From: an uncultured Thermoleophilia bacterium
Lineage (GTDB): Bacteria; Actinomycetota; Thermoleophilia; UBA2241
Assembly: GCA_963791345.1 (NCBI GenBank)
Contig: CAWBRS010000002.1
Coordinates: forward strand, 112,037-176,036
Direction: 5' to 3'
Length of the DNA: 64,000 bases
The first letter of the stretch is position 1; the number at the start of each line of letters is the position of its first letter. The notes beneath the pieces are model-generated. The model saw only the letters and a program-made list of their open reading frames with translations. It searched no databases and had not been told where the DNA came from. Below, piece by piece: positions 26,625 through 52,108 of this stretch. A program made the position numbers and the translations under genes.

Positions 26625-26877
26625 AGGCCGGTCGACCGACATGTGTCGCGCGGTCCGGCCGGCCCCGCGTCGGCACGACGCACCTTGCCCGTGTGCTCTG
26701 CCGCCTGCGCGCGTCTGTCGGAGGCCGGCGCGCACTACGTGGTGCGCTCGATGGCCGAACTGCCCGAGGTCGTCGCCGACTGCGAGCGCCGTCTCGCGTG
26801 CGGAGACGCCCCGAGGGAGCGTGATCCCGGGCAGGACGGACCTCGTGCGAGGGTGGCGCCGGGGGTAGACTGAAGGC

Positions 26878-27114
26878 ATGAGGCAGACCGCCACCCAGAC
26901 CGAGTCGCGCACGCTGGTCGTCACGGGCCCCGCCCGCGACCTGCTGTACGAGCACTTCAGCCGGCTGTTCTGGGGCCGCGGGGTGGTCGTCGTCAAGGAT
27001 CGCCGCGACGGCGAGCGTCGCGCCGCGCGGGCCGCCGTCTCCGACGAGCGGCGCGAGGCCGACCGCCGCCGCCGGCCCCCCGACTGGATCGTGCCCCCGC
27101 CCGACGCCGCTTGA
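26878..27114 (+). CDS. hypothetical small protein (78 aa), first ORF of the co-directional catabolic island
   Basis: ORF with an N-terminal structured-looking segment (TLVVTGPARDLLYEHFSRLFWGRGVVVVKDRRDGERR) and an Arg-rich tail; no family recognised. Confidence 0.3.
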   Translation: MRQTATQTESRTLVVTGPARDLLYEHFSRLFWGRGVVVVKDRRDGERRAARAAVSDERREADRRRRPPDWIVPPPDAA

Positions 27115-27307
27115 CGCCGGGCGCCTTCCCGCCCCGCCTAGGACCTGCCTCTGCGTCATCCGAGCCCCGTCACATCAGGACGGCGGACGCCGCGTCACGA
27201 CGCCTGACCCGAGCCGCCCCGCTGCCCCGCCTGCAGACCCCTGTCTGCCGCAGGTATACTTCACTCTCGTTCGGCCCGGATACGCGATGTGTGGAGGTAG
27301 TTGTCCT

Positions 27308-28111
27308 ATGTTCCTGATGGGCGAATCGATCAACGGCACCCGCAAGGCCGTCGGCGAGGCGATCCAGGCCCGCGATGCGGAGTTCATCAAGGCGCTTGCG
27401 CTCGAGCAGGTGGAGGCCGGCGCCGACCTCGTCGACCTCAACGGCGGCGTCGCCGGCACCGACGAGGTCGACAACCTGCTCTGGCTCGTCGACACCGTCA
27501 TGGGCGTCACCGACGCGCAGCTGATGGTCGACTCGGCAAGCCCCGAGGCGCTCGAGAAGGGCGTCCAGGCGATCATCGACAAGGGCGGCAAGGTGCCGTT
27601 CATCAACTCGATCAGCGGCGAGCAGCCGCGCATCGACGCCGTGCTGCCGCTCATCGAGAAGCACAAGTGCCCGGTGGTCGGCCTGTGCCTGAGTGACGAG
27701 GGCATCCCGGCGACGGCCGAGGACCGCTTCGCCGTCGCGCAGCGCATGTACGACCTGTGCACCGGCGCCGGTCTGCCGCCGCAGGACCTGTGGATCGACC
27801 CGCTGGTGCTGGCCGTGTCGGCCGACGCCTGCGCGGGCCAGGTCACGCTCGACACGCTCAAGCTCGTCAAGACCCGTCTCGACTGCCGCACGACCGGCGG
27901 CCTCAGCAACGTCAGCTTCGGGCTGCCGAACCGCGCCCTGCTCAACCGCGTGTTCGTGGCGATGTGCGCCGGCATCGGGCTCGACGGCACGATCGTCGAC
28001 GTGCGCAACGCGCAGATGATGGCGACGATCAAGTCGATCCGCGCGCTCAACGGCGCCGACGGCTTCTGCGGCAACTACCTCAAGGCGCACCGCGCCGGGC
28101 AGCTCGCCTAG
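27308..28111 (+). CDS. pterin-binding (MetH/MtrH/MtgA-like) methyltetrahydrofolate:corrinoid methyltransferase-family protein
   Basis: MFLMGESINGTRKAVGEAIQARDAEFIKALALEQVEAGADLVDLNGG resembles the MetH pterin-binding domain (GERxNVTGSxxF...QVExGAxxIDVN). TIM-barrel length about 267 aa. RBS GGAGG lies 9 nt upstream of ATG 27308. Confidence 0.7.
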   Translation: MFLMGESINGTRKAVGEAIQARDAEFIKALALEQVEAGADLVDLNGGVAGTDEVDNLLWLVDTVMGVTDAQLMVDSASPEALEKGVQAIIDKGGKVPFINSISGEQPRIDAVLPLIEKHKCPVVGLCLSDEGIPATAEDRFAVAQRMYDLCTGAGLPPQDLWIDPLVLAVSADACAGQVTLDTLKLVKTRLDCRTTGGLSNVSFGLPNRALLNRVFVAMCAGIGLDGTIVDVRNAQMMATIKSIRALNGADGFCGNYLKAHRAGQLA

Positions 28112-28113
28112 TC

Positions 28114-29220
28114 GTGAGTGACGGCCGCCGCGCGCGGGCGCGCGAGCTCGGCATCGAGATCGGCGTCCTGCCCACCGGGGCGCTGAACGCCGTCACCGAC
28201 GTGCCCGGCGTGCTCGTCGGTCACAGCACCGTCTCGTGGGGCGGGCCCGAGCTGCCGACCGGCAGCGGGCCCGCCCGCACGGGCGTCACCGCCGTGTTCC
28301 CGCACGGCGACGGCCTGTGGGACCGGCGGGTCGTCGCCGGCGTCTTCGCCGCCAACGGCGCCGGCGAGGTCGTCGGCAGCAGCGCGATCCGCGAGTGGGG
28401 GCTCATCGAGACCCCGGTCATGCTGACCAACTCGCAGGCGGTCGGGGCCGTCTACGACGCGACCGTGCGCTGGACGATGGAGCGCGAGCCGCGGACCGGC
28501 CTCGACGACGCCGTCATGCCCGTGGTCGGTGAGTGCGACGACGGGCTCCTCAACGACCAGCGCGGCATGCACGTGCGCGAGGAGCACGTGCGCGAGGCGC
28601 TCGACGGCGCGCGGGGCGGCGCCGTCGCCGAAGGCTGCGTCGGCGCCGGCACCGGCATGATGTGCTTCGAGTTCAAGGGCGGCATCGGCACGTCCTCGCG
28701 CCTCATCACCGTCTACGGGAGGCAGTACGCGGTCGGCGCCCTCGTGCTGACCAACTTCGGCGACCGCCGCCGTCTGGCGATCGACGGGGTGCCGGTCGGG
28801 CGCGAGATCGCCGACCTGATGCCGGTCGAGAAGCGCGAGGGTTCGTGCGTCGTCGTGCTCGCCACCGACGCGCCTTTGACCTCCCGCCAGTGCGAGCGGC
28901 TCGCCAAGCGCGCCGCTCTCGGCCTCGCCGTCTGTGGCTCCTACGCCGCCGACGGGAGCGGTGAGATCATGGTCGCCTTCTCCACCGCCCAGCACGTGCC
29001 GCGGCGGACCGCCGCTCCGCTCCGCCTCGAGACCCTCGCCAACGACGCGACGGCGGAGCTCTTCGAGGCCGCCGTCGACGCCACCGCCGAGGCCGTCGTC
29101 AACTCGCTCTGCGCCGCCGAGACCACCGTCGGGCGCGAGGGCAACACGGTGCACGCGCTGCCCCTCGACCGCATGGTCGAGGTCATGGGGCGCTACGGCC
29201 GCCCGGCCCGCCTGCCGTAG
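28114..29220 (+). CDS. dmpA: DmpA/S58-family (P1) aminopeptidase / D-aminopeptidase-esterase
   Basis: 369 aa, GIEIGVLPTGALNAVTDVPGVLVGHST...GVTAV... with the Ntn autoprocessing region ...GAGTGMMCFEFKGGIGTSSR typical of DmpA/OAT-like S58 peptidases. Confidence 0.8.
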   Translation: MSDGRRARARELGIEIGVLPTGALNAVTDVPGVLVGHSTVSWGGPELPTGSGPARTGVTAVFPHGDGLWDRRVVAGVFAANGAGEVVGSSAIREWGLIETPVMLTNSQAVGAVYDATVRWTMEREPRTGLDDAVMPVVGECDDGLLNDQRGMHVREEHVREALDGARGGAVAEGCVGAGTGMMCFEFKGGIGTSSRLITVYGRQYAVGALVLTNFGDRRRLAIDGVPVGREIADLMPVEKREGSCVVVLATDAPLTSRQCERLAKRAALGLAVCGSYAADGSGEIMVAFSTAQHVPRRTAAPLRLETLANDATAELFEAAVDATAEAVVNSLCAAETTVGREGNTVHALPLDRMVEVMGRYGRPARLP

Positions 29221-29925
29221 CGGCTGACCGCGGCGGCCCGTCGGCCGTCCACGGCCGGGCGCCCCGGGCGATGTCGCGACAGCGGGCAGCAGGTCGTTCA
29301 CCTGCCGTCGCCGCAGAGCGTGCGCCGTCTTCTTCGTGCCAGCGGCGGCTCCGGTCATGGGGAGGTGACCCGGGGCCGAACGCCGTGCGGCAGGACCGCG
29401 GGTCGCTTGCCGCTTCGGAACCGGCACGGTATAAACAGGGCGGTTCTCACACCGGCCGACGTCCGGCCCCGGTAGTGTCGGGCGTGTCGCGCAGGAGCGG
29501 GTCGCGCGGGAAGGACAGCGGTCGTCGCGTCCTCCCACGGGTCGGGTCGCGGCGGGTTCGCCGCCGCCGACCGGCGCGCCGCAGGGCGTCGCAGTGTGAG
29601 GGCCGCACGGAGGCCCGGCTCGGGCCCGCCGGGGATGGAGGGCCCCGTCGGGCGCGGTCCGGTCCGGCCTCCCGTCGTCGAGGGGAAGGAGCAGGGCACA
29701 CGTGAGGTGCGCGTCACCGCAGCACCGCGACACCCGCCCCGGGTCGTCGCCCCACGACTTCGCCGCCGTCTCACGCTCTTCGCGCACCCCGGGCGCCGGG
29801 CGAGCCGCGCCGTACGACGCCGCGGCCACCCTCCGCACCGACCGACTCTGCCAACCGCGAGCCAGTGAAGGAGGTCGGGGCCCCGGTCCGTCGCGCCGTT
29901 AGGCGGTCTGTGAGCCCGAGGAGCT

Positions 29926-30894
29926 GTGGACAAGCGACGCTACTTTGCCAAGAAGATCGCGAATGCGCTGCTGACCATCATCCTGGTCGCCTCGTTCAAC
30001 TTCGCGCTCTTCCGCATCCTCCCCGGCGACCCGGCGCGCCTGCTCCTGCCCAAGGGCAAGCAGCCGCCCGAGGCCGTCGAGAAGCAGCGCAAGACGTTCA
30101 ACCTGGACAAGCCCATGTGGCAGCAGTTCGTCTACTACTGGGGCGACACGATCCAGGGCCGCTTCGGCATGTCCTTCTCCGAGAAGCGCCCCGTCTCCGA
30201 GGTGGTGAGTGAGCGCATCTGGCCGACGGTGGTCCTGGTGGGGACGGGCACGATCATCGCCACCGGCATCGGCATCTTCACCGGCGTCTTCGCCGGCTGG
30301 CGCAGAAACAGCAAGTACGACGTGATATCGACCAACACCGGCATGGTCTTCTACGCCATGCCCACGTTCTGGTTCGGCCTCCTCACGATCATGCTCTTCT
30401 CGACCTATCTGGGGTGGTTCCCTACCGGGAGGATGTCGGAGCCGGGCGCCGACCTCACGGGGATGGAGGCCTTCGTCGACCTCATCTGGCACATGACCCT
30501 CCCCGTCCTCACCTTCGCCATCGCCTGGGTCGGTGAGTACCACCTCATCATGCGCAGCTCGATCACCGGCGTGATGAACGACGACTTCGCCCTCACCGCG
30601 CGGGCGAAGGGCCTCTCCGAGAACACGGTCCTCTGGCGGCATGTCGTGCCCAACGCGATGCTCCCGACGGTGACCATCGTGATGATGAACATCGGCTTCG
30701 TCATGTCGGGCGCGATCCTCACCGAGACGGTCTTCAACTGGCCGGGCCTCGGGCTGCTCGCCTACGAGGCGATGAACAAGCGCGACTACCCGGTCATGCA
30801 GATGGTCTTCCTCATCGCCAGCGTGGCGGTCATCGTCGCCAACCTCATCGCCGACATCACCTACTACTACCTCGACCCGCGGGTGCAGGCATGA
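29926..30894 (+). CDS. ABC transporter permease (DppB/OppB-type)
   Basis: 322 aa, 6 TM segments, binding-protein-dependent permease motif (RAKGLSENTVLWRHVVPNAMLP); intact. Confidence 0.9.
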   Translation: MDKRRYFAKKIANALLTIILVASFNFALFRILPGDPARLLLPKGKQPPEAVEKQRKTFNLDKPMWQQFVYYWGDTIQGRFGMSFSEKRPVSEVVSERIWPTVVLVGTGTIIATGIGIFTGVFAGWRRNSKYDVISTNTGMVFYAMPTFWFGLLTIMLFSTYLGWFPTGRMSEPGADLTGMEAFVDLIWHMTLPVLTFAIAWVGEYHLIMRSSITGVMNDDFALTARAKGLSENTVLWRHVVPNAMLPTVTIVMMNIGFVMSGAILTETVFNWPGLGLLAYEAMNKRDYPVMQMVFLIASVAVIVANLIADITYYYLDPRVQA

Positions 30895-32447
30895 TCCCCC
30901 GGCGCCTGAGGATGTGGATCCTCATCTGGACCCCGGCGACGGCCCTCGCCCTCAACCTCGCGACGTACCCCAAAGAGGTGCCGCTCTCGGCCGGGCTCGA
31001 GGCCGTGGTCAAGGGCTTCTTCAGCGACGAGATCGCCCTCTACCCGGCCTGGATCATGCTGGCGCTCGGGTTGGCCGTCCTCGCGCTGGGCGTGCTCGGC
31101 CTCGTCCGCCGCTCAAAGGCCCGCAGCTTCAACATCGTGCTCGTCATCGTGGCGCTCGTGCTCTTCGTCTGGGCCTACCGCGCCGGCCTCAGCGACGAGG
31201 GCTGGTCGCTCACCGGGCGCACCCCGGGCCCCGGCTGGTTCTTCCAGGCCCTGGTCGTGGCGCTGGGCGGGGTCGCGGCCTGGTTCTGGGCCGTGAGCAA
31301 CCCCGAGCGCGCCGAGCTCTTCGCCTGGAACGGGCACCAGATCTGGAAGCTCTACCGCGCCAACTGGCAGGGCATGGTCGGTCTCGGCATCCTCATCGTG
31401 TTCGGCCTCATGGCGCTGCTCGCGCCGTTCCTCGCCGACCACGCCTACCTCGACCCCAACGCCCAGGTCCGTGAGGACGGCTCGCTGACCAGCGAGGCGC
31501 CGCTCCTCGGGCCGTACCACCCGCCGACCATCGTCTACTACAACTGGTTCGGCACCGACCAGGTGGGGCAATCGGTGCTGGCCGAATTCATCTGGAGCTC
31601 GCGTATCTCACTCATGGTCGGCCTGCTCGCGACGCTGATCTCGACCTTGCTCGGCGCGGCCATCGGCATCGGCTCCGGGTACTACGGGAGCTGGCAGGGA
31701 GAGGTCGGGATGCGATTGACCGACGTGTTCCTGGTCATTCCCTGGCTGCCGCTCGCCATGGTGCTGGCGTCGGCCTGGGGTCAGAACTACTGGATGATCA
31801 TCGTCATCATCGGGATCACGAGCTGGCCGGGCACGGCGCGCGTGGTACGCGCCGACACGCTGCGCGTGCGCGAGCTGCAGTTCATCGAGCGCGCCCGGGC
31901 CATCGGCTCGGGCGACGGCCACATCATGGGCAAGCACGTGCTGCCCAACGTCTTCCCCCTGATCTTCGCCAACACCGTGCTCGTGGTGGCCATCGCCATC
32001 CTCTCCGAGACCACGCTCTCGTTCCTCGGTCTCGGCGACCCGCTCAACTTCAGCTGGGGCACGATGCTGCACTACGCCTGGGCCAACGGGGCCGCCGGCC
32101 TGCCCGCCTGGTGGTACCTGCTGCCGCCGGGCATCGCCATCATCCTCGTCGTGCTCGCCTTCACCTTCATGGGCACGGCGTTCGACGAGGTCCTCGATCC
32201 GAAGTTGCGCAAGCGCGAGGAGAGCGACACGAGCGGCCGCCGTCAGGCCGGCGAGCCGAGCGCCGTCATGGTCGCCGGTGGGGCCGGCAGCGGCGGCTCC
32301 GCGATGATCTACGAGCCGGGCCGCCAGACCGACGACGCGATGCCCGACTACGGCCGGCCGGCGCCCGGCTCCATCCGGCCGCCCGACGCCGGCGGGGGCT
32401 GGGTCGGACCGGGCATCGGGGACGACGACGAGGGAGGCGACCGATGA
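30891..32447 (+). CDS. ABC transporter permease (DppC/OppC-type) with about 150-aa extra N-terminal membrane region and acidic C-terminal tail
   Basis: 518 aa; permease signature [26 protein letters not shown]; translationally coupled on both sides. Confidence 0.9.
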
Positions 32448-33456
32448 GCGCGACCGCGACGACTCCCTCCAAGACGCCCGAACGCTTGGAGCACAAGGGC
32501 CTCCTCGAGGTCCGCGACCTGACCACGCGCTTCAAGCTCTCACAGGGCTGGGTGCGCGCGGTCGAGAAGGTCAGCTTCTGGGTCGAGCCCGGCGAGAGCC
32601 TCGGCCTCGCCGGCGAGTCGGGCTGCGGCAAGACGACCGCCGCGCTCTCGATCCTCAAGCTCCTGCCCGCGAACGGCAAGATCGTCTCGGGCGAGATCCT
32701 CTTCGACGGCAAGAACCTGGCCAAGCGCACCGAGTACGGCATGCAGAAGGTGCGCTGGAAGGAGATCTCGATGATCTTCCAGGGCGCGATGAACGCTCTG
32801 AACCCGGTGACCGAGACCGGCAAGCAGATCGCCGAGCCGATCATGCTCCACGAGGGCCTCTCCGAGAAGCAGGCCATGGTGCGCACCCGCGAGCTCTTCG
32901 ACCTCGTCGGCATCAGTACCAAGCGCGTCATGGACTTCCCCCACCAGCTCTCCGGCGGCATGCGCCAGCGGGCGATGATCGCCATGGCCCTGGCCTGCAA
33001 CCCCAAGCTCGTGATCGGCGACGAGCCGACCACCGCCTTGGACGTCATGGTGCAGGCCCAGATCCTCGAGCTCATCGAGCGCCTCAGGCGCGAGCTCGAC
33101 CTCTCCTTCATCCTGATCAGCCACGACCTCTCGGTGATGGCCGAGACCTGCGACAAGGGCGTCATCATGTACGCCGGCGAGGTCGTCGAGTCGGGCACCG
33201 TGGCCCACCTCTTCAACGACCCGCAGCACCCCTACACGCGCCAGCTCATCAAGGCCTTCCCCAACATCCACGAGCGCCGCGAGATGGTCTCCTCGATCCC
33301 GGGCGACCCGCCCAACCTCCTGGACCCGCCGCCGGGCTGCGGCTTCTCGCCGCGCTGCAACGCAAAGACCGGCGCCTGCGTGGACGATCCCGACACGGTC
33401 GAGGTGGCGCCCGGCCACTTCGTGCGCTGTCACCTGATGAAGCGGGGGGTCGCTGA
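32444..33456 (+). CDS. ABC transporter ATP-binding protein (DppD/OppD-type); frame lost at a G6 homopolymer just before the stop
   Basis: Walker [10 protein letters not shown], signature LSGGMRQR, Walker [14 protein letters not shown]-terminal oligopeptide-type domain ending ...[11 protein letters not shown]. The TGATG stop/start overlap with the next gene is only in frame if one G is added in the run at 33444-33449. Confidence 0.85.
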
Positions 33457-34565
33457 TGGCCACCGAGACCACCCCCACCGAGACCCGGGGCGGGCGCGAC
33501 GTGAGCCGCGACGGCGCCCGCGACAAGAGCCTCGCCGGGCGCATCGGCCCCGAGGACCTGGCCCGCGCCGAGGTCAGAGACGGCGTCCTCTTCGACGTCC
33601 GCGACCTGCAGGTCTTCTTCCCCATCCGCGAGGGCTTCTTCAAGAGCATGGTGCAGAAGGAGAAGCGCTACGTGAAGGCGGTCGACCACGTCTCCTTCCA
33701 GGTCAAGCAGGGCGAGATCCTCGCCCTGGTCGGCGAGTCGGGCTGCGGCAAGACGACCACCGGGCGCACCATGCTGAGGCTCGAGGAGGCGACCGGCGGC
33801 GACATCCTCTACAAGGGCCTGCCGATGCGCGCCTTCTCGGGCAAGGCGCTCAGGGAGTACCGCAAGAAGGCGCAGATCATCTTCCAGGACCCCTACAACT
33901 CGATCAATCCCAAGCAGACCATCTTCGACATCGTCGCCGAGCCCTTGGAGGTCAACGGTGTGACCTCCTCCGAGCGCGAGAAGGAGGAGCGCGTCGTCAA
34001 GGCCATCTCCGAGGCCGGCCTGCGGCCGGCGAGCGAGTACCTCTACCGCTACCCGCACGAGCTCTCCGGCGGCCAGCGGCAGCGCGTCTGCATCGCCGGC
34101 GCCACCGTGCTCGAGCCCGACATGATCGTCGCCGACGAGCCCGTCGCCTCCCTGGACGTCTCGATCCGCAACGACATCCTCAAACTCATGGTCGAGCAGA
34201 AGGACACCCTCGGCGTCACCTACCTGTTCATCACCCACGACCTCTCGCTGGCCTGGGTGATCTCCGACCGCATCGCCGTCATGTACCTGGGGCGTATCGT
34301 CGAGATCGGCGACACCGAGGAGGTCGTCGCCAACCCCAAGCACCCCTACACCAAGGCCCTGATCAGCGTGATCCCGGTGCCCGACCCGCTGGCCAAGCGC
34401 GAGCACGTGATCCTCGCCGGTGAGACCCCGAACCCGGTCGACATCCCCCCGGGCTGCCGCTTCCAGCCGCGCTGCCCCGAGGCGATCGACGCCTGCCGCG
34501 AGATCGACCCGCCCGACGTCAACGTAGGGGGCGACCACTACGCGGCCTGCATCAGGCTGAAGTGA
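33456..34565 (+). CDS. ABC transporter ATP-binding protein (DppF/OppF-type)
   Basis: 369 aa, [30 protein letters not shown]-terminal Cys motif; intact. Confidence 0.9.
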
Positions 34566-36040
34566 GGCCGCTCCTCGACCTGTGGCCCGACGAGGCCATC
34601 GAGGCCATGCACGGGGCCTCGCTGGTCCTCCTCGAACAAGCCGGGGTGCGGGTCGAGTCGCCGACCGCCCGGGACGCGCTGGTCGCAGCCGGCTGCACTG
34701 CCGAGGGCGAGCGCGTGCGCGTGCCGGCGACGATGGTCGACGAGGCCGTCGCCGCCTGCCCGCGCGCCTTCGTCCTTGCCGCGCGCGACCCCGAGCGCTC
34801 GCTGGCCGTCGACGGCGAGCCGGGCGTCACCTACGTGCACAACATGGGCGGGGCGCGCGACGTCGCCGACGCGCGCAGCGGCGCCGGGCGCCGGGCGACG
34901 CTGCGCGACCAGGTCGAGCTGACGCGGGTCATGCACCACCTGCCGCGCCAGCACATGATCACCTCGCTGGTGCAGCCCGGCGACGTGCCCGACGAGCTCG
35001 AGCCGCTCTACTCGTATCTGGTGCTCGCCAACGAGACCGACAAGTCGGTCGGCGGGCCCGGCGTGTCGCACCCGTTCCAGGCCCGGTACCTGCAGGAGAT
35101 GGCCGTCGCCCTGACCGGGGCCGACGGCGGGGGCGGGGTGTACCCCGTCGACCTCGCCTTCTCGCCGGTCAGCCCGCTCACCCTGGGCGGCGAGGTCACC
35201 GACGCCCTCGTCGCGCAGGTGCGGCGCGGCGGCTTCGTGGTCGAGATCCTGCCCTGCCCGGCGATCGCCACGACGGCGCCGGGCTCGCTCGCGGGGGCCG
35301 TCGCCCAGCAGAACGCCGAGGTGCTGGCCGGCGTCGTCCTCACGCAGGTCGTCGCGCCCGGGACGCCGGTGTACTACGGCCCCCGGCTGAGCGCGGTCGA
35401 CCCGCGCACCGGCGTCGTGGTCTCGGGCACCCCCGAGACCGGCATCGCCTCCATGGCGGCGACGCTGCTGGCGCGGCGCTACGGCCTCGCCTGCGACTGC
35501 TACGGACCGACGAGCGACAGCAAGGTGGTCGACGCCCAGTTCGGTCTCGAGACGGCGCTCAACGCACTGCTGGGCATCGCCGCCGCGCCGCGCTTCCTCT
35601 CCGGCGTGGGCGACATCCAGGCCGGCGTCGCGAGCTGCGCCGAGGCACTGGTCGTGGACGACGAGGTCCTCAACTACGTCTTTTACGCGCGCACGCCGCG
35701 GCCCTGGGATGCCGACGCCCTCGACGTCGAGGCAATGGTCGACGGTGTCCTCTCCGGCCGCGGCTTCCTCGGCACGAAGCACACGCGGCGTTACATCCGC
35801 AGCGAGTTCTGCACCCCCGAGATCGGCTACCGCGGCGGTCTCAACGACTGGCTGGCCGGTGGCCGCGCCGGCCTCGTCGACCTGGCGCGCGAGCGCGCCA
35901 CCGAGCTCGTCGCGCGCGAGCCGGTCGGCCTGCCCGGCGACATCGCCGCCGCCCTCTGCGGGCTCATCGACGCCGCCGCGCGCGAGGTCGGGCTCACCGA
36001 GTGGCCGGACCCGCGCCGCATCGTGGAGCCGCCGGGGTGA
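34562..36040 (+). CDS. trimethylamine methyltransferase (MttB) superfamily, non-pyrrolysine member (quaternary-amine:corrinoid methyltransferase-like)
   Basis: 492 aa; N-terminal LLDLWPDEAIEAMHGASLVLLEQAGVRVES, then the family signature ATTAPGSLAGAVAQQNAEVLAGVVLTQVVAPGTPVYYG; no in-frame amber codon. Confidence 0.8.
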   Translation: MRPLLDLWPDEAIEAMHGASLVLLEQAGVRVESPTARDALVAAGCTAEGERVRVPATMVDEAVAACPRAFVLAARDPERSLAVDGEPGVTYVHNMGGARDVADARSGAGRRATLRDQVELTRVMHHLPRQHMITSLVQPGDVPDELEPLYSYLVLANETDKSVGGPGVSHPFQARYLQEMAVALTGADGGGGVYPVDLAFSPVSPLTLGGEVTDALVAQVRRGGFVVEILPCPAIATTAPGSLAGAVAQQNAEVLAGVVLTQVVAPGTPVYYGPRLSAVDPRTGVVVSGTPETGIASMAATLLARRYGLACDCYGPTSDSKVVDAQFGLETALNALLGIAAAPRFLSGVGDIQAGVASCAEALVVDDEVLNYVFYARTPRPWDADALDVEAMVDGVLSGRGFLGTKHTRRYIRSEFCTPEIGYRGGLNDWLAGGRAGLVDLARERATELVAREPVGLPGDIAAALCGLIDAAAREVGLTEWPDPRRIVEPPG

Positions 36041-37121
36041 GCATCCCCTTCCCGCACATCGTGGCGCAGGGGAGCCACCGCGAGCTGGGCCGCGCCGTCG
36101 GCGAGGGTGCCCGCGAGCAGATCGCCGCCGCCATCGCCTTCTACGAGGAGCACTTCACGGCGATGGCCGGCATCCCGTTCGCCGAGGCCGAGTGCCAGAG
36201 CCTCGAGTACCTGCCGTATGTGAAGCGCTACCTGCCGCAGTACGTCGAGGAGCTCGAGGGGATGGCCGAGGCCGCCGGCCTGCCCTTCGTCAAGCTGCTC
36301 GTGCCGAACTGCGCCGAGGAGTTCACGCCTGCCCGACCGACGCCGACACGCAGCGTTCGCCGCACGGTGGGGCGCACGCCTGCACAGGCGTCGCGGTCAG
36401 CCACGCAGGTCGGCACGTCGTCGGCCACAACATGGACTGGTACGTGGTCGACGTCGACAAGAACGTGCTCTTCGACCTCACCACCCCCGACGGCACCCGC
36501 ATCGTCACCATCGCCGGGGTGCCGTACCTGCCCATCCTCGGGCTGAACTCGCACGGCGTGGCCTGCGTCGGCAACTCGGTGTACTCCAACGACAATCGCC
36601 ACGGCGTGCCCAACGTCTTCGTCCGCCGCTGGGTGCTCGAGGCGCCCTCCCTCGAAGAGGCGGTCGCGCGCGCCTGCTTCCCGGTGCGCGCGCGCGGCAC
36701 GAACTACACGTTCGCCGACGTCGAGGGCCGCCTCTGGGACCTCGAGACCTCGGCGTACGCCGCCGCCCTCATCGAGGGCGACGCGACGCTCGCCCACACG
36801 AACCACTACGTGCACCCGGCGATGACCGCCTTCGAGGGCTACCACAACGAGGAGTCGCGTCACCGCCTGCGGGTCGCCGAGGACGAGCTGGCCGCCGGGG
36901 TGGCGCGCGGCGAGGACGCGCGCGACCTCGTCGCGCGCGTCCTCCTCAACCACGACGGCGGCCACGACGCGATCTGCGGCCACCCCGACGAGGCCCTCCC
37001 GGTGGCCGACCAGGTCATGACCGTGGCGAGCCTGATCTGCGACCTGGATTCCCTGCGCGTCGAGGCCTGCGCGGGGCTGCCCTGCGAGAACGAGTACCGC
37101 ACGTTCGAGGCCGGCGCCTGA
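36037..37121 (+). CDS. C45-family (acyl-CoA:6-aminopenicillanic-acid acyltransferase-like) Ntn hydrolase/acyltransferase; one frameshift near 36330
   Basis: VSIPFPHIVAQGSHRELGRAVGE...LLVPNCAEEF in frame 1 joins frame 0 ...HACTGVAVSHAGRHVVGHNMDW...LGLNSHGVACVGNSV... (C45 precursor with Cys nucleophile before GHNxDW). Confidence 0.7.
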
Positions 37122-38764
37122 TGGCCGTCCACGACCTCGTCCTCGCCGGCGGCCGCGTGGTGGACGGCTGCGGCAACCCCTGGTACCACGGCGACGTCGC
37201 CGTCCGCGGCCGCCGGATCGCGGCCATCGGCGCGCCGGGCACGCTGCGCGGCCGACGCACGATCGACGCCGGCGGCCGCTACGTGACGCCCGGCTTCGTC
37301 GACCCGCACACGCACTCCGACGTCTCCATCCTCGCCTACCCGCGCGCCGACTCGGCCGTCCGCCAGGGCGTCACCACCCACGTCACCGGCAACTGCGGCA
37401 TGGGGGCGGCGCCCATCGTGGCGCGCTTCAGGGACGAGCTGCGGCGCGAGTGGGACTACTACTGGGGGGCGCAGGTGTCGTGGGGGTGGCGCAGCTTCGC
37501 CGGCTACCTGCGGGCGATCGAGGCGCAAGGCACGGCGATCAACATCGCGCCGCTGGTCGGGCACGGCGCTCTGCGCATCGGCGCGATGGGCCTCGCCGAG
37601 CGCGCCGTGACTCCGAAGGAGCTCGATGCGATGCGCCGGCTGCTCGACGCCAGCTTGCGCGCCGGCGCCCACGGCCTCTCGACCGGCCTGGTCTACCCGC
37701 CGGGGTGCTTCGCCGACACGGCTGAGATCGTCGCCCTGTGCGAGGTGGTCGCGCGCTACCACGGCATCTACGCCTCGCATATCCGCGGCGAGCGCGAGAC
37801 CGTCATGGAGGCGGTCGCCGAGGCGATCGCCATCGGGCGCGCCGCCGGCGTGCCGGTCGAGGTCTCCCACAACGCGCCCAAGTGGGGGGCGCCTGAGGAG
37901 TCGCGGGGCAACCTCGACCTCGCCGACGCCGCGCGTCGCGAGGGCCACGACGTGACCGTCGACAACGACATGCACACCGAGCTCGCGCCGCGCATGTCGC
38001 GCGCCCTTCCGCAGCCGCTGCTCGACCTGCCGCACGAGCGCCTGATGACGCTCCTCGCCGACCGCCGCGAGCGCGCGAACGTGCGCCGCGCCTGTGAGAC
38101 CGACGAGCTCCCCGGTCCCGGCTACGCCGGTCTCGTGAAGCACGGCCGCTTCGAGCGGATCTGGGTCCTGCACGCCCCGCGTCACCCGGAGCTGCGCGGG
38201 CAGACCGTCGCCGCCATCGCCGAGGCACGCGGCGCCGACCCCTTCGACACCTTCCTCGACCTCATCGTCGAGGAGGACGACCGTATCGTCGGCATCTTCG
38301 AGTACATCGCCGGGTCCGAGATCCGCCGCCTGCTCGCCCACCCGCTGGTCATGGCCTGTTCGGACGGTCTCGTGATGCCGCCGGCGGAGGAGCTCGAGGG
38401 CACCGAGATGTACTGGCCCTGCAGCTACGGCGAGTACCCGGGCATCCTCGAGCGCTACGTGCGCGACGAGCCGCTGCTGCGCCTCGAGGAGGCGATCCGC
38501 AAGATGACCTCCTTCCCGGCGCAGCGTTTCGGGCTGCACGACCGCGGGGTGCTGCGGCCCGGGCTGGCCGCCGACGTCGTGGTCTTCGACCTCGAGCGCC
38601 TGCGCGACCGGGCCACGAACCCCTGGCCGCACCGATTCCCCTTCGAGAACGTCCCCCACGGCTACCCCGAGGGCATCGACGTCGTCCTCGTCAACGGGGC
38701 GGTCGTCGTCGACGGGGGCGAGCACACGGGGGCGCTCCCCGGGCGCGTCCTGCGCCGGCGCTGA
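37121..38764 (+). CDS. N-acyl-D-amino-acid deacylase (D-aminoacylase) family amidohydrolase
   Basis: 547 aa, DLVLAGGRVVDG...TPGFVDPHTHSD metal-binding HxH, ...HNAPKWG..., C-terminal beta-sandwich; intact. Confidence 0.85.
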   Translation: MAVHDLVLAGGRVVDGCGNPWYHGDVAVRGRRIAAIGAPGTLRGRRTIDAGGRYVTPGFVDPHTHSDVSILAYPRADSAVRQGVTTHVTGNCGMGAAPIVARFRDELRREWDYYWGAQVSWGWRSFAGYLRAIEAQGTAINIAPLVGHGALRIGAMGLAERAVTPKELDAMRRLLDASLRAGAHGLSTGLVYPPGCFADTAEIVALCEVVARYHGIYASHIRGERETVMEAVAEAIAIGRAAGVPVEVSHNAPKWGAPEESRGNLDLADAARREGHDVTVDNDMHTELAPRMSRALPQPLLDLPHERLMTLLADRRERANVRRACETDELPGPGYAGLVKHGRFERIWVLHAPRHPELRGQTVAAIAEARGADPFDTFLDLIVEEDDRIVGIFEYIAGSEIRRLLAHPLVMACSDGLVMPPAEELEGTEMYWPCSYGEYPGILERYVRDEPLLRLEEAIRKMTSFPAQRFGLHDRGVLRPGLAADVVVFDLERLRDRATNPWPHRFPFENVPHGYPEGIDVVLVNGAVVVDGGEHTGALPGRVLRRR

Positions 38765-39065
38765 CCCGCAGCGCCGCTCGCGGGCCCTCGATCCGAGCCG
38801 CCGCTCGCCACCGCCGGCCCACTCTGCCTGCTGCCGCCCGCGGCCGCCGATCGTCGTCGCCCGCCCCGCCGATCGCCTCCCACGCGGCTACCGTCGTCGC
38901 CCGCCCACTGCCACGTGACATCGCGTCCAACCGTGGGCCATCGTGGCCAGACGTCGACCGCCGCGGTGCTCCAATTGCACTTGGACATCGTGTAGAGTGG
39001 CGGAGCCTGCGGCAGGAGTCGCGGGCCTCGCTCACCACGATTCGAGAAAGGCAGGGAGAAGGCCC

Positions 39066-40238
39066 ATGGCAGCAGACCCCACGACCTACGACATCGAGCT
39101 CGAGCACGTCACCAAGCGTTTCGGCGACTTCACCGCCGTGAAGGAGATGGACCTCAAGATCCGCAAGGGCGAGTTCTTCTCCCTGCTCGGCCCGTCGGGG
39201 TGCGGCAAGACCACGACGCTGCGCATGGTGGCCGGCTTCGAGCAGCCTACGGAGGGCGAGATCTACCTCGGCAACGCCCCGGTCGCCGGCGTGCCGCCCT
39301 ACAAGCGCAACGTCAACACCGTGTTCCAGAACTACGCCCTCTTCCCGCACCTCTCTGTCTGGGAGAACGTCGCCTTCGGCCTCAAGCGCAAGAAGGTCGA
39401 GAAGGACGAGATGACGCAGCGCGTCGGCGAGGCCCTCGAGATGGTCGAGATGGACCAGATGCAGGACCGCAAGCCGCATCAGCTCTCCGGCGGCCAGCAG
39501 CAGCGCGTCGCGCTCGCGCGGGCCCTCGTCAACCGCCCCATGGTCCTGCTCCTCGACGAGCCGCTCGGGGCCCTCGACGCCAAGCTGCGCAAGGCGATGC
39601 AGCTCGAGCTCAAGAAGCTGCAGAGCGAGGTCGGCATCACCTTCATCTACGTCACGCACGACCAGGAGGAGGCGCTCACCATGAGCGACCGCCTCGCCGT
39701 GATGAGCCAGGGGCTCGTCGAGCAGGTCGGCTCGCCCGCCGACATCTACGAGAACCCGCAGTCGGCCTTCGTGGCCAACTTCATCGGCGTCTCCAACATC
39801 TACCTCTCCGACGTCGTCAGGGTCGACGGCGAGATCGCCGAGTGCCGCACCGACAAGGGCCTCGGGGTGAGGGTGCTGGTCCGCGGTCACGACACGCGCG
39901 CCGGGCAGAAGGTCGGCGTCGTGATCAGGCCCGAGAAGATCTCGATCACCCCCGCCGACGAGGCCGACGAGGTCGCCGACCGCGAGAACATCTACGACGG
40001 CGTCATCAAGGCGGTCGTCTACATCGGCTCGGTGACGCAGTTCATCGTCGACGTCGAGGAGGGCAAGCACCTCGCCCAGGTGCTCTACCAGAACCTCTAC
40101 CACACCGACCGCAAGGAGTGGCACGCCGGCCAGCAGGTCAAGATCGCCTTCTGGAAGGACAGCTGCTCCGTCATCACCGACGTCGACAAGGGCATGGCCG
40201 AGAAGGACCTCATGGGCGAGGTCGTCAGGCGTATGTGA
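39066..40238 (+). CDS. PotA-type (spermidine/putrescine-like) ABC transporter ATP-binding protein with C-terminal TOBE domain; no adjacent permease or binding protein
   Basis: 390 aa, [12 protein letters not shown]-loop, LSGGQQQRVALARAL, LLLDEPLGALD, TOBE-like C-terminal domain; intact. Confidence 0.85.
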   Translation: MAADPTTYDIELEHVTKRFGDFTAVKEMDLKIRKGEFFSLLGPSGCGKTTTLRMVAGFEQPTEGEIYLGNAPVAGVPPYKRNVNTVFQNYALFPHLSVWENVAFGLKRKKVEKDEMTQRVGEALEMVEMDQMQDRKPHQLSGGQQQRVALARALVNRPMVLLLDEPLGALDAKLRKAMQLELKKLQSEVGITFIYVTHDQEEALTMSDRLAVMSQGLVEQVGSPADIYENPQSAFVANFIGVSNIYLSDVVRVDGEIAECRTDKGLGVRVLVRGHDTRAGQKVGVVIRPEKISITPADEADEVADRENIYDGVIKAVVYIGSVTQFIVDVEEGKHLAQVLYQNLYHTDRKEWHAGQQVKIAFWKDSCSVITDVDKGMAEKDLMGEVVRRM

Positions 40239-40327
40239 CGGGTGGTGGCCGGGCGCCGCTCCGCGGCGCCCGGCCACCAGACGCGGACGAACGTGACCGG
40301 CCGGGCCGGTCGCCGAGGCAGGGCGCG

Positions 40328-41980
40328 ATGATCACGGTGCAGGACATCCTCGAGATCCCCGACCTGAACCTGCGGCTGCTCGCCGGCGGCAAGTCGACGA
40401 GCAACCCGGTGCGCTGGGTCCACATCACCGAGGTGCCCGACCCGACGCGCTGGCTCCGCGGCGGCGAGCTGCTGCTGACCACGGGCTACGGCTTCGTCGG
40501 CCCCGAGGACCGGCAGCTCGCCCAGCTCAAGCAGCTGATCGACCACAACATCTCGGGGCTCGGCTTCGGCACCGGCTTCAGCTTCGAGAAGGTCCCGGAG
40601 TGCCTCGTGCGGCTGGCCGACGAGTACGGCTTCCCGCTCTTCGAGGTGCCCTACCACGTGCCGTTCATCGCCATCACCGAGGCGGTGGCCTCGAAGATCG
40701 TCAACGAGCAGTACGCACTCCTCCAGCGCAGCCTCGCGGTGCACGAGAAGCTCACCAAGATCGTGCTCGAGGAGAAGGGCCTCGAGGCGATCCTCTCGAC
40801 GCTCTCGGCCCTCGTCGGCTGCTGTGCCGTGCTCTTCGACTTCCACGGTGTGGTGCTCGGCGAGGCCGCCTACCGGCGGCACCTCGGCGCCGAGGTGGTC
40901 ACCGACCTCTGGCGGCACATCTCCGACCACCGCGCCGACCGCCAGGACTTCCGGCTCGCCGTCGACGGCGTCGGCGCGGGGGTGCAGGTCTACCCCGTCG
41001 TCGCCTCGCATCGCATCGGCGCCTTCCTCGCCGTGGTCAAGGACTCGGGCGACTTCTCGGACTACGACCGCATCATCCTGCACCATGTGGTCACCGTGAC
41101 CGCCCTCGAGCTGGTCAAGAAGAAAGCGGTCGCCGAGACCGAGAAGCGGCTCGCCGGCGACTTCTTCGACGAGCTCATCGCCAGCGACCTCTACGAAGAG
41201 GAGATCGCTCGCCGGCTCGTCTTCTTCGGCCTGGACCCTGAGGCCGAGCACCTGATCCTCCTGGTCGACATCGACGGGCTCCCGGCCGCGGGCGACGGCG
41301 AGCGCGAGCGGGGGGCGCTGCAGGACGTCAAGGAGCGCCTGCACTGGGCGGTCGACGAGTTCATGGCCAGGCGCGAGCTGCTCTTCATCTCGGCCTCGCG
41401 CAGCGACTCGGTCGTCGTCCTCGTGCAGCCCGCCCGCGCCGAGGGCGGCGAGATCCTGGCGATGGCCGGGGAGCTGCAGGCGACGATCGACCGCATGCTG
41501 CCCGACATCACCGTGTCCATCGGCATCGGGCGCCCGCACCGCCCCCTGGTCGACCTGCGGCAGAGCTTCTACGAAGCGCACTACGCGATCAAGATCCGCC
41601 GCCTCAAGGAGACCGGGAGGGTCATCGCCAGCTTCGACGACCTGGGCTCGTACGGTCTGCTGCTCGGCCTGCAGGACACGCTGTCGCTCGAGGTCTTCTA
41701 CGACAGCGTCCTCGGCCGGCTCCAGGAATACGATCGGCAGAACTCGAGCGACCTCGTCAAGAGCGTCGCCTGCTTCCTCGAGGCGAACGGCCATTGGGGT
41801 GACGCCGCCGAGAAGCTGTATGTGCACCGCCACACCCTTCGCTACCGGATGAAGCGCGTGGAGGAGATCACCGGCCGCAGCCTCGACGACTCTCAGGACC
41901 GCATGGAGTTCTGGCTCGCGCTGAAGGCCAGGGACCTCATCGAGCAGTCGCGCAAGGGCACGGTCCCGCCGCAGTCCTGA
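40328..41980 (+). CDS. PucR/CdaR-family transcriptional regulator
   Basis: 550 aa; N-terminal PucR-type ligand domain (MITVQDILEIPDLNLRLLAGG...), GGDEF-like middle region, C-terminal HTH (LYVHRHTLRYRMKRVEEITG). Confidence 0.8.
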   Translation: MITVQDILEIPDLNLRLLAGGKSTSNPVRWVHITEVPDPTRWLRGGELLLTTGYGFVGPEDRQLAQLKQLIDHNISGLGFGTGFSFEKVPECLVRLADEYGFPLFEVPYHVPFIAITEAVASKIVNEQYALLQRSLAVHEKLTKIVLEEKGLEAILSTLSALVGCCAVLFDFHGVVLGEAAYRRHLGAEVVTDLWRHISDHRADRQDFRLAVDGVGAGVQVYPVVASHRIGAFLAVVKDSGDFSDYDRIILHHVVTVTALELVKKKAVAETEKRLAGDFFDELIASDLYEEEIARRLVFFGLDPEAEHLILLVDIDGLPAAGDGERERGALQDVKERLHWAVDEFMARRELLFISASRSDSVVVLVQPARAEGGEILAMAGELQATIDRMLPDITVSIGIGRPHRPLVDLRQSFYEAHYAIKIRRLKETGRVIASFDDLGSYGLLLGLQDTLSLEVFYDSVLGRLQEYDRQNSSDLVKSVACFLEANGHWGDAAEKLYVHRHTLRYRMKRVEEITGRSLDDSQDRMEFWLALKARDLIEQSRKGTVPPQS

Positions 41981-42019: not shown

Positions 42020-42775
42020 CTACGACGTGACGAGCGCCCCCCCGTCGACGATCACGTTGACGCCCGTCACGGCGTCGTTCTCCAGGCAGAAGCGCACGCC
42101 GGCCGCGACCTGGGCGGGGGTGACGAGGCGCCCGCCGGCGCCGCGCGCCGCCGTCCGCAGGGCTGCGTCGCGGCGCTCGTCGTCGGGCAGGTCGACGGGC
42201 CCGGGGGCGACGCCGCAGACACGCACGCCGTCGGGCGCCCAGGCTCGCGCCAGCATCTTCACGAGGTGGATCTGGGCGGCCTTCGCCGCCCCGTGCGCGG
42301 CGAAGGCCGCCCACGCCTGGATGCCGAGGAGGTCGGTCACGGCGACGATCACGCCGCGCGTCGCCGCCGCGGTCTCGCCCGCCTCGCGCACCATCACGTC
42401 GCGCGCCGCGCAGGCGGTGAAGAAGAAGCCCCGGGCGACGACGTCGAACGAGGCGTCCCAGGCCGCGCCGTCGATCTCCTGCGGCGGCGTGGGCACGAAC
42501 GCGCCGCTGGCCGTGTAGAGGACGGCGTCGAGGCCGCCGAGCGCCGCGGCCGCCGCGGCGACGGCCGCGCGCGCGCCGTCGGCGGTCGACGTGTCGGCCG
42601 CCAGCGCGACGACCTGCGGCGGCCGCCCCAGAGCGGCAGCCGCGCGCTCGGCGTCGTCGGCATCTCGTGAGGTCAGGGCCACGCGGGCCCCGGCGACGAC
42701 CAGGTCGGCGGCGAGCGGTCGCCCGAGGCGCCGGGCGCCGCCGACCACGAGACAGCGGGCGCCGGGCAGTCTCAT
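42020..42775 (-). CDS. SDR-family short-chain dehydrogenase/reductase
   Basis: 251 aa from ATG (rev) 42773-42775: CLVVGGARRLGRPLA (TGxxxGxG-like), catalytic-region NAAK-like AHGAAKAA, C-terminal VNVIVDGG. Confidence 0.8.
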   Translation of the reverse strand: MRLPGARCLVVGGARRLGRPLAADLVVAGARVALTSRDADDAERAAAALGRPPQVVALAADTSTADGARAAVAAAAAALGGLDAVLYTASGAFVPTPPQEIDGAAWDASFDVVARGFFFTACAARDVMVREAGETAAATRGVIVAVTDLLGIQAWAAFAAHGAAKAAQIHLVKMLARAWAPDGVRVCGVAPGPVDLPDDERRDAALRTAARGAGGRLVTPAQVAAGVRFCLENDAVTGVNVIVDGGALVTS

Positions 42776-43866
42776 GCCGGCACCCCGTCGCCGGGCGCCG
42801 CGAACGGTCCCCCGGCGCGGCTCACGTTCTCGTCGGGCACGACGCCCTCGCCGGCGTCGCCGCCGGCGAGATGCTCGTAGAGGCAGGCGGCGATGCGCGC
42901 GATGACCTGCGGGGCGCGCGCCTGCGCCGCGTACGACAGCCCCTTGCAGAAGACCACCATGACGAGCGGCACGTTCTCGCGCGTGTACACGAGGGCGGCG
43001 TCGTTGCTCGTGCCGCTCACGCCGCCCGTCTTGTTCGCGATCAAGAGGTCCGGAGGAAGGCCGGCGGGGATCTTCTCGCGCGACTCCTGCCGGCTCATGA
43101 CCTCGAGCATGAGCCGGCAGGAGGGCGCCGACGCGCAGCGCCCCTCGGCGATCATGGCGAGCAGCTCCGCGACGGCGCGCGGCGTACCCTGGTTGTCGAG
43201 CGCCTGGTCGATCGTGAACCCGTCGTCGTAGTCGCGCTCGCCGTTGTAGCCCCAGCGCTGGTCGTACAGCCGCCGGAAGGCGGCGCCGTCGAGACCGGCG
43301 TTCTCCTCGAGCACGCGCCGCAGCGCGGCGGCGGTGGTGCCCGCCGCCTCGAGCTCGCGCCAGCGCGCGACCACGCCCACACCGTCGAGACCCTCCCAGT
43401 CGCTGCCCGCCCCACACCCCATGAGGAAGTACTCGCGGTCGGGCAGGGAGCAGTCGATGTCCCTCAGTCCGAGCGCCCTCAGGGCGGCGTTCACGCTCTC
43501 CAGGCCGAGCCTGCGCCAGAGCATGTCGGTGGCCGTGTTGTCGCTCAGGGTGATCATCAGGTAGAGCAGGTCGCGGACCGTCGGCGCGAGCCCGGGGTGA
43601 CAGTGGATGAGCGTGCTCCCCGGGCTCTTGTCGGTCTCGGCCAGCGTGAGGCGCTCGTCGAGACGGAGAGCCCCGCAGTCGACCTGTCGCATGACCTCGA
43701 CCATCACCGCGACCTTGAACACGCTCGCCAGAGGGAAGAGCTCGTCGGCGCCGTGCGCGACCGTGACGCCGGTGGCCAGGTTGCGGGCGCAGACGCCGAC
43801 GGTACCGGCGAGCCCGGCGCCGAGCTCATCGAGGCGGGCGGCGGTGCACTCTCGCGTTGGGTCCAT
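42772..43866 (-). CDS. class A beta-lactamase-like serine hydrolase
   Basis: SVFKV (SxxK), SDN loop (LSDNTATD), KTG triad (ANKTGGVSG); start MDPTRE... chosen; overlaps the SDR start by 4 nt. Confidence 0.75.
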   Translation of the reverse strand: MDPTRECTAARLDELGAGLAGTVGVCARNLATGVTVAHGADELFPLASVFKVAVMVEVMRQVDCGALRLDERLTLAETDKSPGSTLIHCHPGLAPTVRDLLYLMITLSDNTATDMLWRRLGLESVNAALRALGLRDIDCSLPDREYFLMGCGAGSDWEGLDGVGVVARWRELEAAGTTAAALRRVLEENAGLDGAAFRRLYDQRWGYNGERDYDDGFTIDQALDNQGTPRAVAELLAMIAEGRCASAPSCRLMLEVMSRQESREKIPAGLPPDLLIANKTGGVSGTSNDAALVYTRENVPLVMVVFCKGLSYAAQARAPQVIARIAACLYEHLAGGDAGEGVVPDENVSRAGGPFAAPGDGVPA

Positions 43867-43970
43867 CCCGGCGACTCCCTCGTTCGGCTGTGGTAAATAT
43901 AGAGCAGCCGCCCCGGCGGCAGCCATACGGCGCCGTGGGGCGTACCTCGAGCCGAGTCCGGAGGTGGGTC

Positions 43971-49621: not shown

Positions 49622-49698
<77 letters not shown>

Positions 49699-52025: not shown

Positions 52026-52108
52026 GAGGGGGGGTATGCTACCGTCGAGGGGTCCCCACCCGACCTCGACCGTGCATCCGCACGCAACGTCCCACTCAGA
52101 GGTAGACC

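Follow-up and report, generated by a model that had tools for sequence, protein, structure and literature searches.

Gene content of the locus

We analyzed a 64 kb stretch of DNA (72% G+C, hereafter called the window) from an uncultured soil Thermoleophilia bacterium (Actinomycetota), in which a gene for a non-pyrrolysine member of the MttB superfamily of methyltransferases is followed by genes for a C45 (isopenicillin-N acyltransferase-like) N-terminal nucleophile (Ntn) hydrolase and a D-aminoacylase-like amidohydrolase. Throughout the window real genes were told apart by a G+C content of about 0.96 at third codon positions (GC3). According to an original prediction made for this DNA the three genes are translationally coupled, and both junctions are indeed present: the MttB stop codon overlaps the C45 start codon in the sequence GTGA (36037–36040), and the C45 stop codon overlaps the start of the amidohydrolase gene in the sequence TGATG (37119–37123). 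Because the MttB gene is also coupled upstream, by a GTGA overlap with the stop codon of the transporter gene DppF (34562–34565), the triplet forms the tail of a longer chain. This chain comprises seven genes joined by overlaps of 1–4 nt and extends from position 29926 to 38764 in the order DppB, DppC, DppD, DppF, MttB, C45 and amidohydrolase. The coordinates of all features are collected in Table 1.

Relatives of the locus were collected in a scan with one genome per species, yielding 57 loci, and gene maps were drawn by tblastn with the window proteins. An additional metagenome scan yielded 80 further loci, which were sorted by pocket signature and neighboring genes, with Pfam checks. The closest MttB homologs are found in metagenome-assembled genomes (MAGs) of Thermoleophilia, and an exact-sequence look-up of the MttB protein returned no record.

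The MttB homolog and its substrate pocket

The MttB homolog is a protein of 492 amino acids (GC3 0.96) and belongs to the MttB superfamily by its match to Pfam MTTB, which covers residues 3–471 with an E-value of 1.6e-75 and 254.5 bits at a cut-off of 25. As had been predicted, it carries the family signature and is of the non-pyrrolysine type: the motif TTAPGSLAGAVAQQNAEVLAGVV begins at residue 237, the open reading frame (ORF) is free of in-frame TAG codons, and the pyrrolysine of M. barkeri MttB (PDB 7xcl) has Thr317 as its aligned counterpart. The predicted fold is fixed by clear matches to the solved structures of MtgB (E-value 3e-48, about 30% identity) and M. barkeri MttB (E-value 4.6e-40), and also to 4yyc.

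Since these two enzymes are the best matches in the PDB, and since homologs are annotated at the source as “trimethylamine--corrinoid protein Co-methyltransferase”, the protein might be taken for glycine-betaine methyltransferase MtgB or for MttB proper. We consider both identities extremely improbable. An assignment as the trimethylamine methyltransferase MttB is contradicted by the equivalog profile TIGR02369, on which the protein reaches 260 bits against a cut-off of 525 bits, and by the lack of a pyrrolysine codon, with Thr in its place. MtgB in turn is contradicted by the low identity, by the replacement of three betaine-binding residues and by the separate position in the tree, both described below. 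The annotated label is thus very likely wrong for the whole clade.

In MtgB glycine betaine is bound by Tyr97, Arg312, His348 and Phe356, and Arg312 is kept in every member of known function, the substrates of which are all acidic quaternary amines (PMC13080624). Arg312, His348 and Phe356 align with Asp312, Ser347 and Gly355 of the window protein; the region around Tyr97 aligns unreliably. The three replacing residues are invariant in 52 of 52 orthologs from two phyla, Actinomycetota and Chloroflexota. The characterized enzymes MtcB (carnitine), MtpB (proline betaine), MtyB (gamma-butyrobetaine) and MthB (phosphocholine) are likewise non-pyrrolysine proteins that each act on one methylated amine. 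In contrast to the window clade, which features Asp, and a sister clade, which features Asn, they retain Arg312, and their substrates are acidic quaternary amines; here the clades are set apart by the published description.

As Asp replaces the carboxylate-binding Arg312, the substrate of the window protein should be non-acidic, which speaks against glycine betaine, carnitine and proline betaine. To judge from the pocket, the partner of Asp312, or of the Asn in the sister clade, would be a cationic or polar group instead of a carboxylate, and this group might be an amine freed by deacylation. The more likely substrate would be a methylated amine bearing such a group, e.g. an amino or guanidino group that deacylation has set free.

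A rough neighbor-joining tree places the window clade well apart from the Arg-His-aromatic cluster that holds MtgB. Searching 1.84 billion cluster representatives returned five or six full-length clusters at 44–55% identity, below which lies the family background at 30–38%. The original prediction was to be given up if the coupling were unique to this genome and the MttB homolog grouped tightly with glycine-betaine MtgB. Neither was found: the triplet recurs in other genomes, and by identity, pocket residues and position in the distance tree the homolog stands outside the MtgB group.

The hydrolase genes and the quality of the assembly

The second gene of the triplet had been called a C45 gene related to isopenicillin-N acyltransferase. 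The family assignment stands, as both Pfam and NCBIfam profiles recognize the protein, but as assembled the reading frame is broken. Counted from its GTG (36037) through its TGA (37121), the gene measures 1085 nt, which is no multiple of three. According to GC3 the coding frame switches between approximately 36320 and 36380, and an alignment with four close relatives reveals an extra CG at 36326–36327 without counterpart in any of them. Translation from the GTGA start therefore ends at 36546 in the assembled sequence, with the part containing the catalytic Cys out of frame, and the NCBIfam profile NF040521 (C45_proenzyme) matches in two pieces (profile positions 1–83 and 89–312). Without the two inserted bases the gene codes for a protein of 360 amino acids. 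Its nucleophile Cys is located in the motif HAC|TGVAV, the Cys-Thr pair of which is shared by 117 of 117 orthologs. With isopenicillin-N acyltransferase of Penicillium chrysogenum (2x1d) the protein has the C45/AAT family, the proenzyme layout and the aligned nucleophile Cys in common; the match is weak, however (E-value 5e-5), and the bacterial C45 orthologs form an operon-specific group. The best 120 database matches of the C45 protein are all 54–94% identical, which suggests that this ortholog group is restricted to the operon. The search returned the operon's own ortholog group only and therefore supplies no contexts outside of it.

Frame breaks are not confined to the C45 gene. In comparison to the related loci L001, L003 and L004, the stop codon of DppD is gone through a 1-nt deletion near 33453, so that the ORF runs on to 34423 across DppF. 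Housekeeping genes at 52106–55738, 1244–2846, 3309–4530, 7115–8080, 60002–61007 and 62029–63142 are split over at least two frames; named by eye from the translations, the split genes include FtsH, FolE/FolP, Nnr, alanine racemase (Alr), a nitrilase-like gene, tRNA-dihydrouridine synthase (Dus) and LysS. C45 frame breaks also occur in four other loci from long-read MAGs. Overall the window has the appearance of a long-read assembly rich in indels, in which no single frameshift should be trusted. Since essential housekeeping genes are broken as well, we read the C45 insertion and the lost DppD stop codon as assembly noise, i.e. most likely as errors.

The same defects could be viewed as signs of an operon decaying in this genome, with C45 as a true pseudogene, the DppD stop codon lost and the gene of the importer's binding protein deleted. 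The insertion of 2 nt differs from classic homopolymer errors, the 1-nt deletion falls on the DppD stop codon, and the whole window holds no SBP_bac_5 gene, yet the locus L004, with 94% MttB identity, carries one between DppF and MttB. We regard decay as highly unlikely: FtsH, LysS, FolP and others are essential and frame-broken too, the ORFs on either side, MttB and amidohydrolase, show no break and have a GC3 of 0.96, and in L001, L003 and L006 the binding-protein gene is also missing from this position next to an intact C45 gene.

The third gene is D-aminoacylase-like, in agreement with the original prediction. It matches the D-aminoacylase of Alcaligenes faecalis DA1 (1m7j) with an E-value of 2e-71. 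In the latter the metal is bound by His67, His69, Cys96, His220 and His250, with Asp366 as the catalytic residue; the window protein has the identical residue at each of the six aligned positions (HxH, Cys, His, His and Asp). In contrast to 1m7j, the window protein contains an insert of about 70 amino acids (residues 282–351) and stays below the NCBIfam subfamily cut-offs, with 164 bits against a cut-off of 340 bits for the best match, PRK09061. Because the family of 1m7j has several activities, including those of an N-acyl-D-glutamate deacylase and a carbohydrate de-N-acetylase, the amidohydrolase may act on N-acyl-D-amino acids or on other substrates.

Conservation in Actinomycetota and Chloroflexota

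Among the relatives the C45 gene directly follows the MttB gene in 46 of 47 Actinomycetota loci, the exception being L044, and the amidohydrolase gene is present in all of the 47 except L041, L044 and L048. The same arrangement was found in 10 of 11 further metagenome contigs. The three-enzyme operon of the original prediction is therefore a real conserved unit and not unique to this genome, but it is part of the seven-gene chain, and the prediction had overlooked both the Dpp importer and a gene for a pterin-binding methyltransferase, the candidate methyltransferase 2 (MT2), at 27287–28111. The wider conserved cluster consists of this pterin-binding methyltransferase, which is of the MeTr type, an S58 peptidase, DppBCDF, MttB, C45, the amidohydrolase and a PucR-family regulator. 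In about 40 loci the pterin-binding gene is kept at the head of the cluster.

Spacing between the genes varies to some degree. MttB and C45 overlap by 3–4 nt in the seven closest relatives and are separated by about 9 nt or by 60–76 nt in others; an overlap of 1 or 4 nt between C45 and the amidohydrolase is found in about 22 loci. The most variable part of the cluster is the position of the SBP_bac_5 gene. In most loci (about 30) it is located between DppF and MttB, including L004 (8113–9957), and elsewhere it follows the amidohydrolase (L012 type) or precedes DppB (L001). In two loci a creatininase-family gene (PF02633) replaces the amidohydrolase (L048, 12680–13531; L083, 2337–3134).

Chloroflexota orthologs of the MttB homolog are 64–69% identical to it and feature the same pocket. 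Their neighbors are an MFS transporter, histidine kinases or an AAA/VWA gene pair, or there are none of these. Such pairs, which look MoxR/VWA-like or chelatase-like, were seen in two loci: downstream of the MttB ortholog, L038 (12217–16048) carries large genes for an AAA_5-type ATPase and a VWA-domain protein, and L055 (6490–10803) a pair of large genes, of which the VWA gene alone was checked against Pfam.

Recurrence in distant relatives

The link between this branch of MttB homologs and amide hydrolases extends beyond the orthologs. A sister subclade with Asn-Ser-Gly in the pocket (Asn-type) is 35–41% identical to the window MttB and comes from other organisms, with contigs of 53–68% G+C. 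Among the 16 Asn-type loci with enough flanking sequence, C45 genes neighbor MttB in L093, L097, L099 and L102. L097 contains two C45 genes together with an Amidohydro_3 gene whose product is 59% identical to that of the window. A creatininase gene (PF02633) adjoins MttB in L089 (3204–4142) and L102 (6429–7391), and further neighbors comprise a DUF2817/AstE-like deacylase (L093), a beta-lactamase-family hydrolase (L099) and an S9 peptidase (L102). In L096 and L106 an M20 peptidase is followed by a pterin-binding gene. Dpp sets were found in five Asn-type loci.

More distant Asp-type members are found in related settings. At 38% identity (P0252) MttB follows SBP_bac_5, DppB and DppC, and at 48% identity (P0243) an SBP_bac_5 gene occurs with Amidohydro_2, MttB and an aminotransferase. 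At 33% identity (P0258) a corrinoid-protein gene precedes three MttB genes, and on another contig MttB is located beside a URO-D-family gene. Little could be learned from the relatives P0241 and P0242, whose contexts are too short.

For the loci of MttB homologs that keep Arg (Arg-type) the picture is different: C45, amidohydrolase or creatininase genes are present in 0 of 21, and L142 shows the classical order of MttB, corrinoid protein and pterin-binding gene. The recurrence of the hydrolases beside the Asp- and Asn-type genes, in shuffled orders and with non-homologous hydrolases, constitutes the strongest evidence that the link is functional.

Two further observations concern the substrates. 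The recurrence of creatininase genes hints at a cyclic-amide or N-methyl-guanidino compound; that creatine or creatinine itself is the substrate, as the creatininase genes in L048, L083, L089 and L102 might suggest, is speculation. Furthermore, in distant relatives two or three MttB paralogs with differing pockets are often arranged in tandem (L064, 446–3388; L065, 6901–11437; L096, 54–5944). In L065 the pockets read His-Ser-Glu, Ile-Ala-Cys and Asp-Ser-Gly, suggesting loci for the demethylation of multiple substrates.

The pterin-binding methyltransferase and comparison to known systems

The product of the pterin-binding gene at the head of the cluster matches the MT2 of a Desulfitobacterium hafniense O-demethylase (4o0q) with an E-value of 2.5e-45 and the MeTr/AcsE structures 2yck and 1f6y with E-values of 1e-37 to 1e-42, in all cases over the full length. 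By this similarity it is a candidate MT2, an enzyme type that transfers methyl groups to tetrahydrofolate or coenzyme M, and in L044 it is retained beside the binding-protein and MttB genes. In context it differs from the three solved enzymes, being paired with an S58 peptidase outside any Wood-Ljungdahl or O-demethylase setting.

The MtgB/MtgC/MtgA system of D. hafniense (MtgB structures 2qne and 9yce) resembles the window cluster in that its MtgB belongs to the same Pfam family, forms a TIM barrel, is matched over the full length and contains no pyrrolysine, and in that an MT2 is part of the cluster. The two differ in the pocket, where Asp, Ser and Gly take the place of the carboxylate-binding Arg312, of His348 and of the cation-pi residue Phe356, and in the genomic setting: the window cluster is without an adjacent corrinoid protein and lies inside a peptide-importer/hydrolase operon. 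In Ruegeria pomeroyi glycine betaine is demethylated aerobically by MtgBCD, parts of which are shared with a split methionine synthase (PMC12478193). There an MttB-family protein is the first methyltransferase (MT1), the role predicted for the window protein, and its partners MtgC (corrinoid) and MtgD (pterin-binding) are encoded at separate loci; the substrate is, in contrast, glycine betaine. In general logic the window cluster resembles both systems. What sets it apart is the pocket, the absence of a corrinoid protein linked to it and the peptide-importer/hydrolase operon around it.

Proposed pathway and alternative explanations

Building on the gene identities, the operon structure, its conservation, the pocket residues and the recurrence in a distant subclade, we propose, with a probability of roughly 55%, that the genes represent a conserved catabolic cluster for a corrinoid- and folate-dependent demethylase acting on a non-acidic methylated amine tied to imported peptide or amide compounds. 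The Dpp/Opp-type ABC importer would take up a peptide-like or N-acylated compound, the amide bonds of which would be cut by the C45 Ntn-hydrolase and the D-aminoacylase-like metallo-amidohydrolase, aided by the S58 aminopeptidase. The MttB-superfamily protein, as MT1, would then strip an N-methyl group from the compound or a fragment of it; the methyl group would be carried by a corrinoid protein encoded elsewhere in the genome and moved to tetrahydrofolate by the MeTr-type MT2 at the cluster head. The order of these steps is predicted from sequence comparison, as are the methyltransferase activity, the corrinoid dependence and the nature of the substrate. The original prediction suggested that the two hydrolases produce the substrate of the methyltransferase; we infer the same direction of the pathway, and it is weakened by the broken C45 frame in the window and by the Chloroflexota orthologs, for which the hydrolases are not obligatory.

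Several observations weigh against the proposed pathway, some of them concerning the hydrolases and the importer. The Chloroflexota orthologs have neither C45 nor amidohydrolase nor Dpp genes, so that the hydrolases appear dispensable for MttB function. L044, a Thermoleophilia locus, keeps only the pterin-binding MT2, the SBP gene, MttB and PucR, and only four of 16 Asn-type loci carry C45. In the window itself, a tblastn search found no SBP_bac_5 gene that could supply the importer with a binding protein. Moreover, the whole region of about 25 kb is syntenic across these MAGs, including the unrelated genes GroEL, AlaDH and AFOR. Within the class, adjacency alone is therefore weak functional evidence and is in part a matter of inheritance, not of selection.

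Other points of this kind concern the corrinoid. A scan for the B12-binding motif combined with tblastn detected no corrinoid-protein gene in the window, nor within 10 kb of MttB in the Thermoleophilia, Chloroflexota and Asn-type loci. Both positive controls, L065 and L142, were picked up by this test, and the remaining motif matches were off-frame junk. Cobalamin or tetrahydrofolate riboswitches were likewise not found with Rfam in the window, in six related loci or in a permissive scan of positions 26500–40500; the sole Rfam match in the window is a tRNA gene at 49622–49695.

These findings leave room for an MttB homolog that is not a corrinoid-dependent methyltransferase. It could have another TIM-barrel activity, or it could hand the methyl group to the pterin-binding protein or to free cobalamin, in which case no dedicated corrinoid protein would be needed. 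About 45 Thermoleophilia loci, and L096 and L106 as well, have a pterin-binding gene and no corrinoid-protein gene, and the Arg conserved in all characterized members is replaced in the window clade. Nevertheless, methylation of a corrinoid is common to all characterized members of the family (PMC13080624, PMC8604678). The corrinoid partner need not be linked, as the Ruegeria system with its separately encoded corrinoid and pterin components shows (PMC12478193), and a distant Asp-type member adjoins a corrinoid protein. This precedent and the corrinoid-protein array of P0258 make corrinoid dependence plausible, and we hold a corrinoid-independent function to be quite unlikely.

The synteny bears on another explanation: importer and hydrolases could form an ordinary island for scavenging peptides and D-amino acids, e.g. 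from cell-wall peptides or beta-lactam-like compounds, with MttB as an unrelated neighbor kept by vertical inheritance and operon compaction. The S58 peptidase, an M55 peptidase in L001, the D-aminoacylase, the class-A beta-lactamase-like protein and alanine dehydrogenase would together suit the breakdown of D-amino-acid peptides without any methyl chemistry. In addition to a region that is syntenic up to GroEL and AFOR and to Chloroflexota orthologs lacking all these neighbors, Dpp-type transporters are also located near Arg-type MttB genes (4 of 21 loci). An unrelated neighbor is harder to reconcile with a position inside an overlapping chain, between DppF and C45, and with a C45 ortholog group that appears restricted to the operon. 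Furthermore, C45 and other deacylases recur in varied orders next to the sister MttB subclade at 35–41% identity, as opposed to 0 of 21 Arg-type loci. We therefore think scavenging without methyl chemistry unlikely.

Returning to the corrinoid- and folate-dependent demethylase, a more far-reaching version can be put forward tentatively. The branch with Asp or Asn at position 312 might represent a new substrate class, namely non-acidic N-methylated amines contained in, or released from, imported peptide or amide molecules. C45 and the interchangeable deacylases would then be dedicated partners, the methyl group would end up on folate, and the carrier would be shared or absent. Examples may be N-methyl or D-amino-acid peptides or methyl-guanidino compounds of the creatine/creatinine type.

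Neighboring genes and further features of the window

Downstream of the operon the PucR-family gene is likely the regulator of the cluster; it is located 3’ of the operon in almost every locus, L044 among them. The PotA-like ATPase gene, which sits between the amidohydrolase and PucR genes, is not accompanied by genes for a permease or a binding protein. The conserved convergent pair of dehydrogenase and beta-lactamase-like genes at 42020–43977 may belong to the same pathway. A scan of the window for promoter and terminator consensus sequences was uninformative: it returned no promoter and 2 terminator-like sites, where 3.0 of the latter were expected. Apart from the cluster we noticed, at 8608–11731, several small secreted proteins encoded in a row, which resemble each other in their N-terminal signal regions, together with a signal-peptidase-like ORF. 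Judged by eye the set looks SipW/TasA-type, and several of its ORFs are frame-broken.

Table 1. Features of the methyltransferase cluster and its surroundings (window coordinates).
Feature	Coordinates	Strand	Basis and remarks
Pterin-binding methyltransferase, candidate MT2 (methyl-corrinoid:tetrahydrofolate methyltransferase)	27287–28111	+	PDB 4o0q, 2yck, 1f6y
S58 (DmpA/BapA-type) aminopeptidase	28114–29220	+	Pfam Peptidase_S58, E-value 4e-114; start 2 nt past the stop of the pterin-binding gene
DppB/OppB-type ABC permease	29926–30894	+	Pfam BPD_transp_1, BPD_transp_1_N; ATGA overlap with next gene
DppC/OppC-type ABC permease, long N-terminal extension	30891–32447	+	Pfam OppC_N, BPD_transp_1
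DppD-type ABC ATPase, stop lost	32444–33457	+	Pfam ABC_tran, oligo_HPY
DppF-type ABC ATPase	33456–34565	+	Pfam ABC_tran, oligo_HPY
Non-pyrrolysine MttB-superfamily protein, candidate MT1	34562–36040	+	Pfam PF06253; pocket Asp312/Ser347/Gly355
C45 (isopenicillin-N acyltransferase-like) Ntn-hydrolase proenzyme, frame-broken	36037–37121	+	Pfam AAT PF03417; NCBIfam C45_proenzyme
D-aminoacylase-like amidohydrolase (Amidohydro_3)	37121–38764	+	PDB 1m7j
Orphan PotA-like ABC ATPase	39066–40238	+	Pfam ABC_tran, TOBE_2; in part of the related loci only
PucR-family transcriptional regulator	40328–41980	+	Pfam PucR, GGDEF_2, HTH_30 on the L001 and L002 orthologs; NCBIfam partial PmfR, AdeR
Short-chain dehydrogenase, convergent, conserved	42020–42790	-	Pfam adh_short
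Class-A beta-lactamase-like serine hydrolase	42772–43977	-	Pfam Beta-lactamase2, E-value 2.8e-58; SxxK (SVFK), SDN and KTG in the translation

Implications

Thousands of non-pyrrolysine MttB homologs have no assigned substrate, and the characterized ones all act on acidic quaternary amines. In the literature searched we found no paper on this clade or on the association of MttB with C45 and other hydrolases, in line with the view of the original prediction that it had not been described. The charge-reversed pocket together with the repeated linkage to C45, deacylases and importers represents a testable lead to a different class of substrates. If the proposed pathway is true, methyl groups on peptide-like compounds would be used in a B12- and folate-dependent manner in soil and sediment. 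It would also provide the first physiological context for the bacterial C45 “isopenicillin-N acyltransferase-like” proteins, the roles of which are largely unknown.

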